A DNA stretch of 64,000 nucleotides. Origin: Candidatus Bathyarchaeota archaeon. Its GTDB lineage: Archaea; Thermoproteota; Bathyarchaeia; Bathyarchaeales; Bathycorpusculaceae. The translations under genes and the position numbers were made by a program. The stretch is taken from the NCBI GenBank assembly GCA_963715865.1, contig OY970280.1, positions 1,792,001-1,856,000 on the forward strand, written 5' to 3'. The notes beneath the pieces were generated by a model. The model saw nothing but the letters and a program-made list of their open reading frames with translations, searched no databases and was not told the DNA's origin. Of this stretch, positions 9,128-45,285 are shown in pieces (positions within the stretch are counted from its first letter, which is position 1; every line of letters begins with the position of its first letter).

Positions 9128-9532
9128 GTGTGGCTAAGGGCTATGTTTAAATTGGAAACTGTTACACCAAACCTAATTGTGAAAGCCATAACAATACTTG
9201 GCGCCATTGCGGTTACAGTATTATTCTTCTTTGCAATAGTGTTCGCTCTTGCCGCTTCAGTTCAAGCGACAGCAACGAGGCTTGTTACAAGTGGTTTGCT
9301 TTTCATTATTGGCCTTGCCGTAATCGTGGGCATCTATTATGTTACGCGCAAACCAAAAACAGTTATCCAGCGATTAGAAGTTTCAGGACAAATGAAAGCT
9401 GAAGCAATCAAGTGCCCAAACTGTTCAGCGTCAATAGATGCTAACCAAATAAAAATTGTGTCAGGCGTGCCCTATGTTAAATGCCCCTATTGCGGTACCA
9501 CGTTTGAGGTTACTGAGGAACCAAAATGGTGA
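9128..9532 (+). CDS. Two-TM membrane protein with C-terminal zinc ribbon
   Basis: Two hydrophobic helices, then CPNC...CPYC; overlaps start of next gene. Confidence 0.7.
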   Translation: MWLRAMFKLETVTPNLIVKAITILGAIAVTVLFFFAIVFALAASVQATATRLVTSGLLFIIGLAVIVGIYYVTRKPKTVIQRLEVSGQMKAEAIKCPNCSASIDANQIKIVSGVPYVKCPYCGTTFEVTEEPKW

Positions 9533-11152
9533 AGCGAATTTGCGTCTTGACGGTTATTCTTGCCTTAATTATTTCACTGACAGCTATGAGCTTAGCAAAT
9601 GCGCAGGAAAGAGTCTACAGTTTTGACCACCAATGGGCACAGATATTCATAAACCAAGATGGAACAATCGACTTAACCTATAATCTGACCCTAACGCTAC
9701 ACTCTGGAACTGATATACATGCGATAGATATAGGGCAACCTAAAGGGGACTTTACTATAGGCCAAGCTGTTGACCAATATGGACACCAACTTCAAACATC
9801 AGATGATAGTAGTGGAAGCGACTACAGAGTCCGAGTAACCCTAAACCAGCCTCTAACAGCTGGAAACACCATTTGGTTCACCCTAACAACAAATGTTGCA
9901 GGCATGATAAGCAATGATACGCAGAACCCAGGCAATTTGGGCATGGAGTTTGCTCCTGAATGGATGTCAGTGCCAATCAACGATGTGCGGGTACAAATTG
10001 TTCTTCCACTCGGCGTTGCCATAAGCGACGTGAAAACTACACAAAACTTCTACAACAGCACCTCGTTAGTGGAAGGAAGATTGGCGGTTTACTGGGAAAA
10101 ACCGGTTCTACAGCCTAATGAGCAATTCTTGGTAGGTGTTTCTTTTCCAGCCAAATACTTGCCCAATTATTATCCTTCTCAAGTAGGTGGTCTCGAAGAA
10201 TTGGAAATTTCGATATTACTTTTTGGATTAGCGGCATTTGCTATTTTTGTGATCGGATTCATCGTTTTCAAGGTGCAGAAAAAGCACTTACTTAACACCG
10301 AAAATCAGCATGGAAACCTTAGGGATTAAACGCGGCTTAACAGCCGTTGAAGCATCTTACCTTCTTGATTTGAAGCCAACACAGATAGTAACTGAAATTC
10401 TCTATAGTCTTTTGCAGAAAAGGGCTGTTTGGGCTGAAGAAACCAAACCTGCGCTTAAACTTCGTGTGCTTCCACCTTATGAGAACAAAACAGGTAGCGC
10501 AGAGAATCCTCTAAGGTATTACGAGATTGATTTCCTTAACTCGCTAAAGGCTAATGGCACGCTCGATGAGGAGAAACTTGCGCACACAATCATGTTTCTG
10601 CGTGACACCGTAGAGCAGAAAATGCACGGTTACAGCCGAAAGGACACCGTTGACTACTACCGAAAAATCGTAAGCCAAGCATGGACACAAGTGGAACAAG
10701 CTGGAACTGTCGAGTTAGCATCAAACGCTTATGATGAGCAACTGCTCTGGCTTATGCTTGACCCAAATCAACGGTCACGCACAGAAACAGTCTTCAAAGA
10801 CAGGGTTTTCCAGCCAAATCCACTTTGGTTCTGGTGGTGGTATGGCTATTCACAGTATAATCCACATCCCACATACAAACCAAACGTTGAGGCACCAGCG
10901 CAATCAGGCAAACCACCAGCTATTCCAGGAGCTGAATTCGCAAACAACATAGCAACTGCGGTAGAGAACACTTCAAACAATATAGTATTAAGCTTAGAAA
11001 AATTCGCTAATGCCATCGTTCCGGCACCACCGAAAGCATCTCATGAACCAGCACATCACGGAGCTGACTGCGTCTGTGCGTGTGCGGCTTGTGCCTGTGC
11101 TTGCGCTTGTGTTTCATGCGCTTGTGCATGTGCAGGTGGAGGTGTTCGTTAG
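9526..11152 (+). CDS. Exported/membrane protein (DUF2207-like architecture) with C-terminal Cys-Ala repeat tail; split by a +1 frameshift near 10288
   Basis: ORF 9526..10329 (signal peptide, beta-rich ectodomain, TM) joins ORF 10310..11152 when one T at 10288-10289 is removed (..QKKHYLTPKISMETLGIKRGL..). Ends HHGADCVCACAACACACACVSCACACAGGGVR. Confidence 0.75.
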
Positions 11153-11154
11153 AA

Positions 11155-12502
11155 ATGAGTTTTCTGAAAAATATTTTTGTTAAGCCAAGGGTTCCTCAAG
11201 GACGTTATACTTATCGTGGTAAGGACAAGTTTGCAGGCATGTCCCTTCAACTGAGAGTAGAGCAGTCTGGACAAGGCGTTATGGTGATTAACGCCAACAC
11301 GGTTCTTCATTTAAACCACACTGCAACGGCATTTGCATATTTTTTTATGCAGGGTTTGCCCCAAAAACAGGTTTTAACTAAAATTCGCCGAATGTATCAT
11401 GTCAACGTTAAAACTGCTAAAGCTGATTATGAAAAATTAACCTATACGGTTAGTACCTTGGCGCAAACGGAAAAAGTCGACCCAGTATCTTATCTTGAAA
11501 TTGAAAAGGAAGAACCATTCTCTTACCAGTATTCAGCGCCCTTACGCATGGATTTAGCTTTGACTTTCAGATGCCAAAACGACTGCGTTCACTGTTACGC
11601 TGGAGGACCGCACGAGACACCGGAACTAACAACGGCGCAGTGGAAAAGTGTCATCGATAAACTCAGTGAAATCGGCGTTTTCATCTTAACCTTCACAGGC
11701 GGCGAACCCACATTGCGCGAGGACTTGCCAGAACTGTTACTGTACGCTCAAGCCAAAGGCATGGTTACAGGGCTGATAACTAACGGGCGAAAACTGAAGG
11801 ATAAACCCTATGTTGATGTACTTGAAAAATCTGGTTTAGATTTTGTGCAAGTAACACTGGAATCTCACAAACCGGAAGTTCATGATTTAATGACTAGTGA
11901 AAAGGGCAGTTGGAGTGAAACGGTTGCTGGAATAAGAAATGCTGTGCAATCGCAAATTTACGTTTCAACCAACACTACACTAAGCAAACATAATGCTGAT
12001 GATTTTCTAACAACCATCGATTTCATTAAAGGACTTGATGTGGACGCTTTCGGTTGCAACAGCCTCATTTACTCAGGCAAAGCACCTGACGTAAGCCAAG
12101 AGTTTGCGCTGTCCTTCGAAGAGTTGAATTTGCTTTTGCCGAAAATCCGCGACAAAGCCCACATGCTTGGCTTAAAGTTCCTATGGTACACGCCGACCCA
12201 GTACTGCCATTTTGACCCTGTTACAGCTGGGTTTAGGAGTTAAAACCTGCACTGCCGCAATGATAAACGCTTGCGTGGGACCAAACGGCGACGTTTACCC
12301 ATGCCAAAGCTACTTTGAAAGCCTAGGCAACATTCTCACAGATTCTTGGGAGAAGATTTGGGGCAACCCTTTGGCAGTAAAACTGCGCAGCAGAGCATAC
12401 GTTGAGCAAAAATGCAAGGATTGCCCTCAACTCCAAGTTTGCGGCGGAGGATGCCCCTTGGAACTGCAAAACAAAGAGCACCTTTGTAGCCAAACAGGAT
12501 AA
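11155..12502 (+). CDS. Radical SAM/SPASM protein with N-terminal PqqD/RRE-like domain; split by a +1 frameshift near 12221
   Basis: ATG 11155, 2 nt after the upstream stop; CQNDCVHC, GGEP, ITNG; SPASM C..GDVYPC..LGNI..CKDCPQLQVCGGGCP in the next frame; removing one T at 12221-12222 gives HFDPVQLGLGVKTC. Confidence 0.85.
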
Positions 12503-12551
12503 TTTATCTTTAGCAAGCTACCTTTTTCTCTTTAGGCAGCACGACGCATTT

Positions 12552-13802
12552 GTGAGCTTAGAGAGGAATGTTGCTATAGAGAAAAATAGGCTTGTAGTTT
12601 TCGACGTTGAAGGAGTGCTTATTCCAAAGAATCGCTTCTTGTTTGAAGTAGGGAAAAGTTTAGGTTTCGTTAGGTTGGTTCGGCTTCTTTTTTTCGGTTT
12701 TCTCTATGAATCAGGTATTTTAAAGTTAGAATCGGCATTAAAGCATATTTTTAAAGAGTTAAAAGGAACAAAGCCTGAAACGTTAATGTTTATTTTCGGA
12801 AAAATTTCTTCAACATCTTTTCTGCAAAATATTTTTTCTCAAATTAAAATGAGGAATTGTAAGATTGCTTTGATTAGTTCAGGGTTGCCAACGGTTATTG
12901 TTAAAAAGTTAGCTGCAACAGTTGGTGCAGAATACGCTTATGGCGTTGAAGTTGAAACCAAAGATGGCAAGTTAACAGGTGAAATCTGGGGAGACGCGAT
13001 TTGTCCAGATGGTAAACTGAAAATTTTGAGCCAAATTTTAACTGCTGAAGGCTTGAATTTGAGCGATTGCATCGTTGTTGCTGATGATAGAAATAACCGT
13101 TGCGTTTTCATGCCCGGAATGCTAAAAATTGGTTTTAATCCTGATTTTATTTTGCGAGTTAAAGCTGACAAAGTAGTAACTGGCAAACTTTCAGGAATTT
13201 TGCCCATTATTGATGGGAAACCGCTTAAACGTTCTTTTCCGTCTACGAACGATTTTGTAAGAGAAGACATCCATGCTGCTGGATTTTTTATGCCAGTTAT
13301 CGCTAGTTTAATAGGTGTCCCCATAGTTGGCGCGTTAATTTTCACGATAGCATTGCTATATACTATATCTGAACTTTTGCGTTTAGAAGGAAGAGATTTA
13401 CCTCTAATTTCGGCGATTACGCGTCATGCTGCATCTCAATCAGAACTACATGGCTTCGTAGCAGCTCCGCTATACTTTGCTTTTGGCATTTTGTTAACTT
13501 TGCTTGTGTTTCCAGCTCCTGCAAGTTATGCTGCGATTGCTATGTTTTGCTTAGGCGATAGCGTCGCTTCGCTTTTCGGAGGTCTTATTTCTACATCTTT
13601 ACCGTTTAACAAGGGGAAAACTTGGGAGGGTTCACTGGCCGGGTTCTTTTTTGCGTTTTTAGCTGGCACGTTTTTTGTTTCGCCAGTGCTGGCTCTGATT
13701 GGGGCGGCGATTGCGATGACTATTGAGGTTCTTCCGTTGCCTGTGAATGATAATGTGCTAGTGCCAGTAATTACAGGAGTAGCGTTAACGCTACTGGTCT
13801 AA
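12552..13802 (+). CDS. HAD-like hydrolase fused to CTP_transf_1 (dolichol/phytol kinase-like) membrane domain
   Basis: VVFDVEGVL and LISSG HAD motifs; C-terminal multi-TM with GDSVASLFG, KTWEGSLA, IEVLP..NDN. Start GTG 12552 chosen (ORF track begins 12402). Confidence 0.75.
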   Translation: MSLERNVAIEKNRLVVFDVEGVLIPKNRFLFEVGKSLGFVRLVRLLFFGFLYESGILKLESALKHIFKELKGTKPETLMFIFGKISSTSFLQNIFSQIKMRNCKIALISSGLPTVIVKKLAATVGAEYAYGVEVETKDGKLTGEIWGDAICPDGKLKILSQILTAEGLNLSDCIVVADDRNNRCVFMPGMLKIGFNPDFILRVKADKVVTGKLSGILPIIDGKPLKRSFPSTNDFVREDIHAAGFFMPVIASLIGVPIVGALIFTIALLYTISELLRLEGRDLPLISAITRHAASQSELHGFVAAPLYFAFGILLTLLVFPAPASYAAIAMFCLGDSVASLFGGLISTSLPFNKGKTWEGSLAGFFFAFLAGTFFVSPVLALIGAAIAMTIEVLPLPVNDNVLVPVITGVALTLLV

Positions 13803-42509: not shown

Positions 42510-42565
42510 TTAGGTACGCCGAAATATTTATTAGGTGTGCCTAAACATGTTTTAGGTATGCCTAA
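42510..42565. promoter_or_regulatory. Three tandem DtxR-type operators (TTAGG-N4-CCTAA) at 21-bp period
   Basis: TTAGGTACGCCGAA 42510, TTAGGTGTGCCTAA 42531, TTAGGTATGCCTAA 42552, directly at the 5' end of the DtxR-family gene. Confidence 0.8.
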
Positions 42566-42590
42566 ATCCGAAGTAACATCAAGCAAAAGC

Positions 42591-43305
42591 ATGCAAGATT
42601 ACCTAAGAGCAATAGCGGCGCTCTCAAACAACGGCGACCCCGTCAACACAACCGAAATCTCCCGATACTTCAAAATTGCGCCAGCAAGCGTAACTGAAAT
42701 GATAAAAAAACTATCCGAAAACGGTTACGTAAAATACTCATCATACCACGGAAGCACCCTCACAGCGAAAGGTGTCAAAGAAGCCCAAAAAATCACCCGC
42801 AAACACAGATTACTTGAAAAATTCCTCTCAGACGTACTGCACATCGGAAAAGATCAAGTCCACACTCAAGCATGCGAAATGGAACACTCGTTATCAGACG
42901 AAGCAGAAGAGTCACTTTGCCGCTTCCTAAAGCATCCTGATACTTGCCCCGACGACGGCAAAATAATTCCTGCCTGCGACTTGCCCTTCACAACATGCGA
43001 GGAATGCATCGCTTTGCATAAGAAAGGCTTAGAAGAAGTGGGAAAACGCCAGCAGAACCTTCAATCGATATGCAATCTTAAATCAGGCGTCAACGCAAAG
43101 GTCTCCTTTATCAGAGGCGAACACAGAATCCTTCAAAGACTTCTTAGACATGGGATTAACTCCTGGAACTCCGATAAAAATCGAAAGAGTCGCCCCGCTA
43201 AAAGGACCCATCGAAGTTTGTGTAAGAGGTTCAAAAGTTGCACTTGGGCAAGACATCGCTGCAAACGTCTTTGTGGAATCAATCCAAAAACCGAACAAGG
43301 CATAA
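42591..43305 (+). CDS. DtxR/MntR-family metal-dependent repressor with C-terminal FeoA domain; +1 frameshift near 43144
   Basis: MQDYLRAI, ASVTEMIKKL, RKHRLLEKFL, ACEMEH, CPDDG..IP; removing one T at 43144-43145 restores RLLDMGLTPGT..RVAPLKGPIEVCVRGSKVALG (FeoA) ending TAA 43303-43305. Alternative starts at 42537 or 42558. Confidence 0.85.
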
Positions 43306-43311
43306 TTAGAT

Positions 43312-45285
43312 ATGTCGTGCCACTCAAATTCATCTTCCAACTTTAAGAAACAGAAAAACAACCAAAAAACCTTAACTATCGCCTTAGCCGGCAACGCCAA
43401 TGTTGGAAAAAGTGTCCTGTTCAATCAACTTACAGGTTCAAGCCAGATAATCGGTAACTGGCCCGGCAAAACGGTGGAGAAAGCCGAAGGCACACTCACA
43501 TTTGAGGGGCAAAAAATCACGGTTATTGATTTGCCCGGCATCTACTCTTTCTCCACGTTCGGTATGGAAGAACTCGTTTCCCGAGAATACATCGCCACTG
43601 AAAACCCCGATGTTGTCATAAACGTGGTTGACGCGGCGGTTTTGGAGCGCAACTTGTTCTTTACCATGCAACTCATCGAGATGGATGTTCCGCTGGTTCT
43701 TTGTCTAAATCAGGTAGATGAAGCGAAGAAAAAAGGCATAACCATCAACCGCAAAAAGCTCGAGCAACTCTTAGGCGTGCCTGTAGTTCCCACAGTAGCC
43801 ATACGCGGAGAAGGAATATACGAACTAACCAAAACCGCCCTCAACGTCACACGCGACCGCCAAAACCACAAGTCCCACCTCAGATACGGCGCCGAGATTG
43901 AACAACGCATAAGCAAACTAGACCAAACCATCCAAAACGCCAACCTAAACCTGAATTACCCCTCGCGCTGGGTCGCCATCAAACTGCTTGAAAATGACCC
44001 AGAAACCAAAAAGTTAGTGGCATCTTCCGAAACTATCAACAAGGCTTCTGAAGATTTGGCTACTGAAATCTCCGCCATCCACCACGAACCCTCATTTGCG
44101 GTCATTGCCTCGGAACGGTATGGTTTGGCGAGCAAGATTGCGAGTGAGGTGCAGCGGCAAACCGAAGTCCGAACCACCATTTCTGACAGAGTGGAGTGGA
44201 TAACTACTCACCGAGTCTTGGGCTATGTTACGTCTGCGGCGGTGATTGCAGGTTTGCTGGTTTGGACATTCAGCATCGGCAGCCTGCTTTCAGGGCTATT
44301 CTCGAAGGGTCTATCGTTTTTTTCGCCTGTTAACCCTGCTTTGAGTGGGTCAATTCAGGGCATACTCTGGAACGGAGTGTGGGGCGGAGTAGTCGCAGGT
44401 TTAACGCTGATTATTCCGTTTGTTGTGCCCTTTTACCTGATGCTTGCCATGATTGAGGACTCAGGCATTCTCACCCGAGTGGCGTTCATGATGGATAGCG
44501 CCATGCATAAAATCGGTCTTCATGGCAAAGCGCTAATTCCCATGATCCTAGGTTACGGCTGCAACGTGCCCGCCATTCGAGCATGCAGAATCATGGAGAC
44601 TAAGCGTGAACGGTTGCTAGCGACGTTTGCTATCACTTTTGCTCCTTGTGCAGCCAGAACAATCGTCATTCTTGGTTTGGTAGCTGTTTTCTTAGGTCCT
44701 TGGTGGGCGTTATCCCTGTATGCCGTAGACATCGCGCTTATTTTCGTTCTTGGAAGAATAGCGTTGAAAGTTGTTCCTGGGCAATCCACGGGACTGATTA
44801 TGGAGATGAGCTCTTTCAAAGTTCCTTCCTTATCTGTGGTTGCTAGGCAAACTTGGTCGCGAACCAAATCTCTGATATACATAGTGTTTCCGCTGTATAT
44901 CGCTGGAAGCGTCGTAGTTCAAGTCTTGTATGCGGTGGGTGTTCTGCAGCAAGTAAGCAACGTGTTATCACCTATCACAGTTTTCTGGCTTGGACTCCCC
45001 GCCATAGCTGGCATACTGCTGATTCTGGGGTTCGTTCGCAAAGAAATGGTATTGCTAGCTGCGGTTGCCATCTTTAGCTCAACCAATCTTGCTTTGTTCT
45101 TTAGTCCGGTTCAACTAGTGACGCTTGCCTTAGTGAACATGATTTATATTCCATGTTTGTCTACGGTTGCTGTGCTGGCGAAGGATTACGGTTGGAAGAC
45201 TGCCGTTGTCATAGCAGTTGCAAACTTTGCCGTTGCGATACTGGTAGGCGGAATAGCTTTCCGTCTCCTCTCGCTAGTTCTATAA
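43312..45285 (+). CDS. feoB: Ferrous iron transporter FeoB
   Basis: [40 protein letters not shown]. Confidence 0.96.

Follow-up and report, generated by a model that had tools for sequence, protein, structure and literature searches.

The 64,000 nt of a Candidatus Bathyarchaeota archaeon genome analysed here (contig OY970280.1, positions 1,792,001 to 1,856,000, hereafter the window) include, between positions 9128 and 12502, three tightly packed genes on the forward strand. They encode a small zinc-ribbon membrane protein, a large membrane protein that ends in an alternating cysteine-alanine string (the tail protein), and a radical S-adenosylmethionine (SAM) enzyme with a C-terminal SPASM domain. 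The locus is probably one copy of a widely inherited three-gene module, in which a maturase that combines a RiPP (ribosomally synthesised and post-translationally modified peptide) recognition element (RRE) with radical SAM and SPASM domains would act on the tail of the membrane protein, and which carries two one-base insertions in this assembly.

The positions of the features are listed in Table 1. The product of the first gene has two hydrophobic segments followed by a cytoplasmic MJ0042-type zinc ribbon (CxxC...CxxC) and the C-terminus EEPKW, and it matched the NCBIfam profile TIGR02098 (MJ0042_CXXC, E 7e-7). This gene overlaps the start of the tail-protein gene at 9526 by 7 nt. The stop codon of the tail-protein gene (TAG, 11150–11152) is separated by 2 nt from the ATG of the enzyme gene at 11155. 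The gene order, with an overlapping transmembrane (TM) zinc-ribbon gene upstream and a radical SAM/SPASM gene 2 nt downstream, had been described in an earlier note on this DNA, and both neighbours were confirmed, the second by profile matches to both of its domains. The first part of the tail-protein gene encodes a signal-like segment, an outer beta-sandwich resembling DUF2207 and a single TM segment, and the second part a cytoplasmic winged-helix-like and helical domain followed by a pair of helices and a disordered tail. The first frame of the enzyme gene includes an RRE-like domain (~11200–11466), the CxxxCxxC motif (~11572–11595) and a TIM-barrel core.

Table 1. Features of the three-gene locus (positions in the window)
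Feature	Position	Strand	Description and basis
Small two-TM zinc-ribbon membrane protein gene, first of the module, intact	9128..9532	+	134 residues; open reading frame (ORF) list, profile search
Cys-Ala-tail membrane protein, N-terminal part, ends at an out-of-frame stop	9526..10329	+	Frame 1; corresponds to residues 1–256 of intact orthologs (544–550 aa)
Frameshift site 1, one extra base	10274..10285	+	DNA alignment with intact orthologs
Cys-Ala-tail membrane protein, C-terminal part	10253..11152 (start approximate)	+	Frame 2; 83–87 % identity to ortholog residues 253–543
25-codon Cys-Ala core CVCACAACACACACVSCACACAGGG, then VR and stop	11069..11143	+	Translation, codon count
Radical SAM enzyme, first frame, ends at an out-of-frame stop	11155..12243	+	Frame 1; Radical_SAM domain
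Frameshift site 2, extra T in CCTG[T]TACAG	12222..12223	+	DNA alignment with ten intact orthologs
SPASM domain of the radical SAM enzyme	12224..12502 (ORF 12212–12502)	+	Frame 2; PF13186, TIGR04085

The frame ending at 11152 finishes in DCVCACAACACACACVSCACACAGGGVR, with 10 cysteines within the last 27 residues. The codons used in the tail are mixed, cysteine being encoded by TGT (seven times) and TGC (three times) and alanine by GCT (four), GCG and GCA (two each) and GCC (one), and Tandem Repeats Finder detected only a weak array in the tail DNA, with 65–71 % matches. When 24 Bathyarchaeia tails were compared, all 25 codons were found to vary synonymously, and 20 of the 25 residues were invariant. 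As the variation at all codons is only synonymous, selection acts on the peptide, alanine and glycine positions included. The codon counts and the comparison of the 24 tails therefore confirm the proposal, made in the earlier note, of a ten-cysteine tail with mixed codons that is under selection at the protein level. A DNA microsatellite as the origin of the tail was ruled out by the mixed codons, the weak repeat array and the synonymous codon variation. A search for the Cys-Ala motif in the rest of the 2.35-Mb genome found no second copy.

The tail-protein family comprises 531 clusters at 50 % identity, and a Cys-Ala string ends nearly every full-length member. In Bathyarchaeia the tail takes the form C[VA]CAC..CACACACVSCACACA[GS]GG followed by one or two residues, while in most bacteria and other archaea a Gly/Ser-rich run is followed by CACACACA[GS]CACACAGGGR; a third form terminates with ...CACACACAGGGGCT. 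The final CACACA-GG block was the sole fully invariant run in an alignment of 24 sequences from different phyla, in which mean identity was 34 %. Judged from these alignments, no other part of the protein is conserved as well as the tail. The glycines near its end had been taken as a possible processing site (GGG-x-R). The protein stops one or two residues past GGG, and in two relatives (P0149 and P0157) the core lies inside the protein, with GGG as an internal linker; the core can therefore sit elsewhere than at the very end, and GGG-x-R was rejected as a processing site. In the two genes with an internal core, at L116:5001–6980 and L119:5001–7028 (659 and 675 aa), the core is followed by a domain of ~95 residues, and a Radical_SAM/SPASM gene lies directly downstream.

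The association between the tail protein and the enzyme was examined in a cross-phylum set of 80 loci, obtained by a pattern scan with one genome per species. These loci span Bathyarchaeia, other Thermoproteota, Anaerolineae and other Chloroflexota, Zixibacteria, Nitrospirales, a deltaproteobacterium and Methanocella. In about 75 of the 80 loci the tail-protein gene is immediately followed, on the same strand, by an ortholog-level enzyme match (360–840 bits to P0002), and in 69 a zinc-ribbon gene lies directly upstream. Apart from L060 and L062, the loci without an adjoining enzyme were accounted for by contig ends, by split genes in long-read metagenome-assembled genomes (MAGs) or by an enzyme gene a few kb away. 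In a sample drawn from the genus and the order, both genes were present in the identical 16 of 41 genomes and neither in the remaining 25. Among 201 Bathyarchaeia genomes the tail protein was found in 40 and the enzyme in 39; both genes were adjacent in 38 genomes and absent from 160, and only three were discordant, all of them fragments, though these presence and absence counts include kin genomes and hence are not independent. Co-occurrence had been set as a test of the pairing, and homologs of the tail protein almost always keep the adjacent radical SAM gene. The distributions point clearly to joint gain and loss of the two genes. The module is lacking in 10 of 24 genomes of the genus, and only fragments of it occur in the relatives G048, G089, G150, G153 and L029.

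Two further features of the module were also seen. In Chloroflexota (e.g. L084:9178–11108) it is extended, in 32 loci, by an enzyme paralog with no CxxxCxxC motif and almost no cysteines, and likewise in 32 loci by a gene resembling class I SAM methyltransferases. Neither of these genes is present in the window or in the Bathyarchaeia form of the module. The C-terminus of the zinc-ribbon protein, EEP(K/T)W, was unchanged across the 20 copies from archaea and bacteria that were aligned, including the upstream genes of L016–L092, and could be a docking or acceptor motif.

The enzyme was assigned by its domains. The window ORF matched PF04055 (Radical_SAM) at 88.8 bits against a cut-off of 29.5 (E 6e-25), and the three cysteines of CxxxCxxC (C140, C144 and C147), invariant in 32 orthologs, are kept in the window. 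The ORF at 12212–12502, which in the source assembly carries the SPASM domain out of frame with the preceding part of the gene, matched PF13186 (44.2 bits against 21.5, E 2e-11) and TIGR04085 (53.1 bits against 27, E 3e-14). Seven SPASM cysteines (C351, C365, C383, C420, C423, C429 and C433) are invariant or nearly so in the 32 orthologs. In CteB, where there are seven cysteines in place of eight, one iron can be left open to a thiolate of the substrate, and the seven-cysteine SPASM domain of the window enzyme recalls this arrangement by analogy.

An AlphaFold model of an intact ortholog of the enzyme had a pLDDT (predicted local distance difference test) value of 86 and a predicted template modelling score of 0.87. 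Ahead of the barrel, residues 16–104 were modelled with pLDDT 84–94 as four strands (16–53) and helices at 55–65, 70–81 and 85–104. This small beta-sheet with three helices is the layout of an RRE, and the N-terminus is accordingly predicted to be RRE-like. The best full-length Foldseek matches were the RRE-bearing maturases SkfB, SuiB and CteB, with 400–467 aligned columns that cover the whole chain, RRE included, and SkfB was also the best sequence match among solved structures. In NCBIfam there were sub-threshold matches to many SPASM enzymes, and the SkfB and AlbA profiles aligned from near the N-terminus.

A model of an ortholog of the tail protein was also examined. The model has a confident outer beta-sandwich (31–209), a TM helix (230–253), a confident cytoplasmic winged-helix-like and helical domain (268–435) and two helices (471–500) that coincide with the conserved FAN..V...E...N..V...E.F pattern. 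The Cys-Ala tail was predicted to be disordered, with pLDDT below 40. There are 6 K/R after the TM segment and 1 before it, and this positive-inside charge distribution assigns the tail to the cytoplasm, together with the zinc ribbon and the enzyme. Foldseek searches with the model returned only generic beta-sandwiches (ribophorin I/OST1 and the N-terminal domain of M1 aminopeptidase) and gave no functional lead. The matches to the sandwich, residues 31–209 of P0001 (window 9616–10150), had E values of about 1e-9 and low template modelling scores.

No Pfam or NCBIfam family was found for the tail protein, and the small zinc-ribbon protein received generic zinc-ribbon matches only. The intact ortholog scored 17.1 bits (E 0.007) against PF09972 (DUF2207), below the cut-off of 24.4, and neither the window's own ORFs nor a genome-wide family search gave a match to this profile. 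Several relatives carry precomputed PF09972 matches. DUF2207 proteins share with the tail protein a signal or TM segment, an outer beta-sandwich, a TM segment, a cytoplasmic region and a low-complexity C-terminal tail, but differ in that the Pfam score of the tail protein is below the cut-off. On this architecture the tail protein may fairly be called DUF2207-like.

These features suggest how the module might work. The enzyme would dock through its RRE on the cytoplasmic part of the membrane protein, cleave SAM reductively and abstract hydrogen within the tail. Cysteines of the tail would then be modified, the likeliest products being S-to-C thioether bridges of the sactionine or ranthionine type, and a floppy polythiol at the inner membrane face would thereby become rigid and cross-linked. 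Thioether modification is inferred by analogy with SkfB, CteB and especially CrpC. The earlier note had proposed the tail of the membrane protein as the substrate; the genomic linkage and the evidence of selection support that assignment well and make the tail the likely substrate. A complex prediction for the enzyme with residues 455–544 of the tail protein returned no answer (score 0.01) and counts neither way.

Several observations weigh against a maturase that acts on the tail. PF05402 (PqqD) aligned with ortholog residues 44–96 at only 12.1 bits (E 0.26, cut-off 23.4), so the RRE call rests on the predicted fold; of the PqqD/RRE segment that had been claimed at the N-terminus, the RRE-like fold was borne out by the model and by Foldseek, and the Pfam match to PqqD lies below its threshold. 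The scores against the profiles of named thioether maturase families all fell short of the respective cut-offs: 75.1 against 300 for SkfB (TIGR04403), 58.5 against 850 for AlbA (NF012164), 72 against 625 for StsB (NF045574), 28 against 340 for PapB (NF047865) and, for the SPASM part, 29.2 against 425 for SCIFF (TIGR03974). The profile of the CrpC family, TIGR04463 (rSAM_vs_C_rich), matched the locus itself (G000:C1:1803503–1804027) at 35.8 bits against 525. By these scores the enzyme is a member of no named maturase family. In the cross-phylum set, the enzyme was not seen within the fetched flank at L060 and L062, and at some loci only the Cys-less paralog adjoins the tail gene. Finally, Cys-X-Cys strings are classic metal sites, and the tail could bind metal or an iron-sulfur cluster instead of being cross-linked, or as well.

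This last point leads to an alternative in which the tail is a metal- or iron-sulfur-binding polythiol that serves, for example, in metal or sulfur trafficking or in electron transfer at the membrane, and the enzyme uses the protein as an anchor or scaffold, or builds or inserts a cluster, with no covalent cross-link. Alternation of cysteine with another residue is a known metal-binding pattern, typical of metallothionein-type sites, and the predicted disorder of the tail is what apo metal sites often show. A zinc-ribbon partner and, in Chloroflexota, a cluster-less enzyme paralog travel with the tail protein. However, the alanine and glycine positions are as invariant as the cysteines, which metal binding alone would not require. 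The enzyme also has the RRE, radical SAM and SPASM architecture of peptide maturases, to which it is structurally closest, and its linkage to the tail is nearly absolute. We regard this alternative as unlikely but still live, and metal or cluster binding could also complement the modification of the tail.

A second alternative, that the enzyme in fact acts on a different product of the module or on a small peptide lacking annotation, was considered with the C-terminus EEPKW of the zinc-ribbon protein as the example. The invariance of this end in archaea and bacteria would fit such a role, as would the chemistry of SuiB, one of the closest structures, which makes a Lys-Trp cross-link; in addition, the clustering of neighbouring genes covered ORFs of 100 aa or more, a size range above that of short precursors. 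On the other side, no zinc-ribbon gene was detected at 11 of the 80 loci, all of which keep the tail protein and most of which keep the enzyme. The 2-nt gap and the 7-nt overlap leave no intergenic room inside the module at this locus, and in every lineage the feature that goes with the enzyme is the tail rather than the end of the zinc-ribbon protein. A substrate other than the tail is very improbable.

With the tail retained as the preferred substrate, a broader proposal can be made, to which we give a nearly even chance. Across archaea and bacteria, the radical SAM enzyme may turn the unvarying (Cys-Ala)n-GGG terminus of a complete membrane protein into a new protein-derived structure, for instance a thioether ladder or a built-in polythiolate or iron-sulfur cofactor at the inner membrane face, and the EEPKW end of the zinc-ribbon protein may take part.

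To our knowledge, radical SAM/SPASM maturases have been described mainly from short exported peptides, and the first demonstration that an enzyme makes thioether bridges on a large protein came in 2026, for one soluble archaeal protein. In that system the RRE, radical SAM and SPASM enzyme CrpC of Methanococcus voltae modifies CrpA, which is large and Cys-rich, with ranthionine bridges (Dieter et al. 2026, PMC13692751). As in the window, an archaeal gene for an enzyme of this architecture lies beside the gene for a large Cys-rich protein, and the bridges are made on a protein rather than a short peptide. CrpA differs in being soluble and in having a 17-residue cysteine motif repeated ten times, whereas the candidate in the window is membrane-bound and has a single short (Cys-Ala)n tail. 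The tail protein, at 1.8 % cysteine, would have escaped the screen that found CrpA, because that screen applied a filter of at least 5 % (PMC13692751).

SkfB (6EFN), CteB (5WHY), SuiB (5V1Q) and AlbA share with the window enzyme an N-terminal RRE, a radical SAM barrel and a C-terminal domain for auxiliary clusters, and their substrates have Cys-containing cores. They differ in sequence, with 17–22 % identity and the NCBIfam scores for SkfB and AlbA far under the cut-offs as given above, and in their substrates, which are free precursor peptides, a few dozen residues long, that bear leaders at the N-terminus and give exported products. Cores of closely spaced, repeated cysteines are reported to be paired with a radical SAM/SPASM enzyme in the sactipeptide system StsA/StsB (Precord et al. 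2023, PMC10288494), and repeated-cysteine cores are likewise paired with such enzymes in Haft's target families (ACGX repeat, TIGR04340 enzyme). The StsA/StsB and ACGX substrates are small peptides, unlike the membrane protein in the window; the ACGX enzyme family matched only the SPASM part of the window enzyme (E 6e-6). The sulfatase-maturing enzyme anSME, which converts cysteine or serine to formylglycine, is also among the fold matches and is SPASM-type and acts on a whole functional protein, but it has no RRE and matched through its SPASM part only. Radical SAM modification of a whole protein by a SPASM-type enzyme is also known from QhpD/QhpC.

Literature searches on DUF2207, on its pairing with radical SAM enzymes and on the tail string found no paper on the three-gene module. 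What is likely to be new here, judging by the gene content, is an RRE-bearing radical SAM/SPASM maturase with the tail of a membrane protein itself as its substrate. If this is correct, RiPP-type chemistry matures a resident membrane protein rather than an exported peptide, and thioether chemistry is extended to the cytoplasmic tail of a membrane protein. Uncultured anaerobes of several archaeal and bacterial phyla inherit the module as a single unit, no curated family was found for its parts, and it offers a first functional handle on DUF2207-like proteins.

The earlier note had assumed that the membrane protein and the enzyme are each encoded in a single intact frame and that the system is intact here. 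This was not upheld, as each gene carries a +1 frameshift in the assembly. In DNA alignments each split corresponds to one extra base relative to ten intact orthologs. Site 1 sits between the end of the TM segment (..FIVFKV) and RKSTY, where the precise base is not resolvable and an A5 run is possible, and site 2 falls within the conserved stretch FDPVQLGLGVK, where there is no homopolymer run. Orthologs from the same genus are intact, with lengths of 541–551 aa for the tail protein and 441–448 aa for the enzyme and identities of 77–87 %. By its reading frames, the module as assembled is unable to make either large protein at full length. Programmed +1 frameshifting was considered and ruled out, as the ten orthologs read straight through both sites.

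The extent of splitting was surveyed by taking ORFs of 200 aa or more from ~420 kb of G012, the closest relative, and comparing them with the whole source genome. Among the 178 orthologous genes, only those for the tail protein and the enzyme were truly split, a third apparent split being a 22-residue N-terminal artefact. All 16 other genes in the syntenic 20 kb map in one frame. The two independent single-base insertions would, with a slightly better than even probability, mean that an accessory module, one frequently lost in this lineage, was inactivated very recently. Because the module is accessory and often lost, decay in the source genome is plausible.

Other findings count against real decay. 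The window copies keep every family-invariant residue, 62 of 62 in the enzyme and 16 of 16 in the tail protein, which leaves either very recent decay or an assembly error, and the assembly is a single 2.35-Mb contig for which the sequencing technology is not stated. The alternative, that the two frameshifts are consensus errors and that the module in the organism is intact and working, has a substantial though lesser than even chance. In its favour, besides the retention of the invariant residues, the identity of the interrupted genes to their orthologs is similar to that of neighbouring genes, site 1 may sit in an A5 run, and split enzyme genes also occur in several long-read MAG loci of the family. 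There is, moreover, at least one further frameshift in the window. The ORF for a DtxR-type regulator (42537–43346) leaves frame after ...RILQRLL, and a FeoA-like continuation (MGLTPGTPIKIERV...) is found in another frame at 43150–43305, just before feoB (43312–45285). This +1 frameshift, at ~43137–43150, splits the regulator from the FeoA domain and bears on the trust that can be placed in the two frameshifts of the module. Against consensus errors, site 2 is outside any homopolymer run, and the module is dispensable and fragmentary in other Bathyarchaeia. As the only two truly split genes among the 178 are adjacent, two random errors within 3 kb are unlikely (of the order of 1 in 1000).

The source copy thus adds a case in which both partner genes are disrupted together while nearly all other compared genes are intact, and the source lineage adds that the presence of the tail protein and that of the enzyme are concordant in every complete case examined, within the genus and the class.

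Downstream of the module, an ORF at 12402–13802 encodes a HAD-type hydrolase domain fused to a multi-TM region. As listed, it begins 100 nt before the SPASM frame ends. Orthologs align only from ~12576, and the real start is probably later. This gene is syntenic within the genus and lies outside the cross-phylum module.

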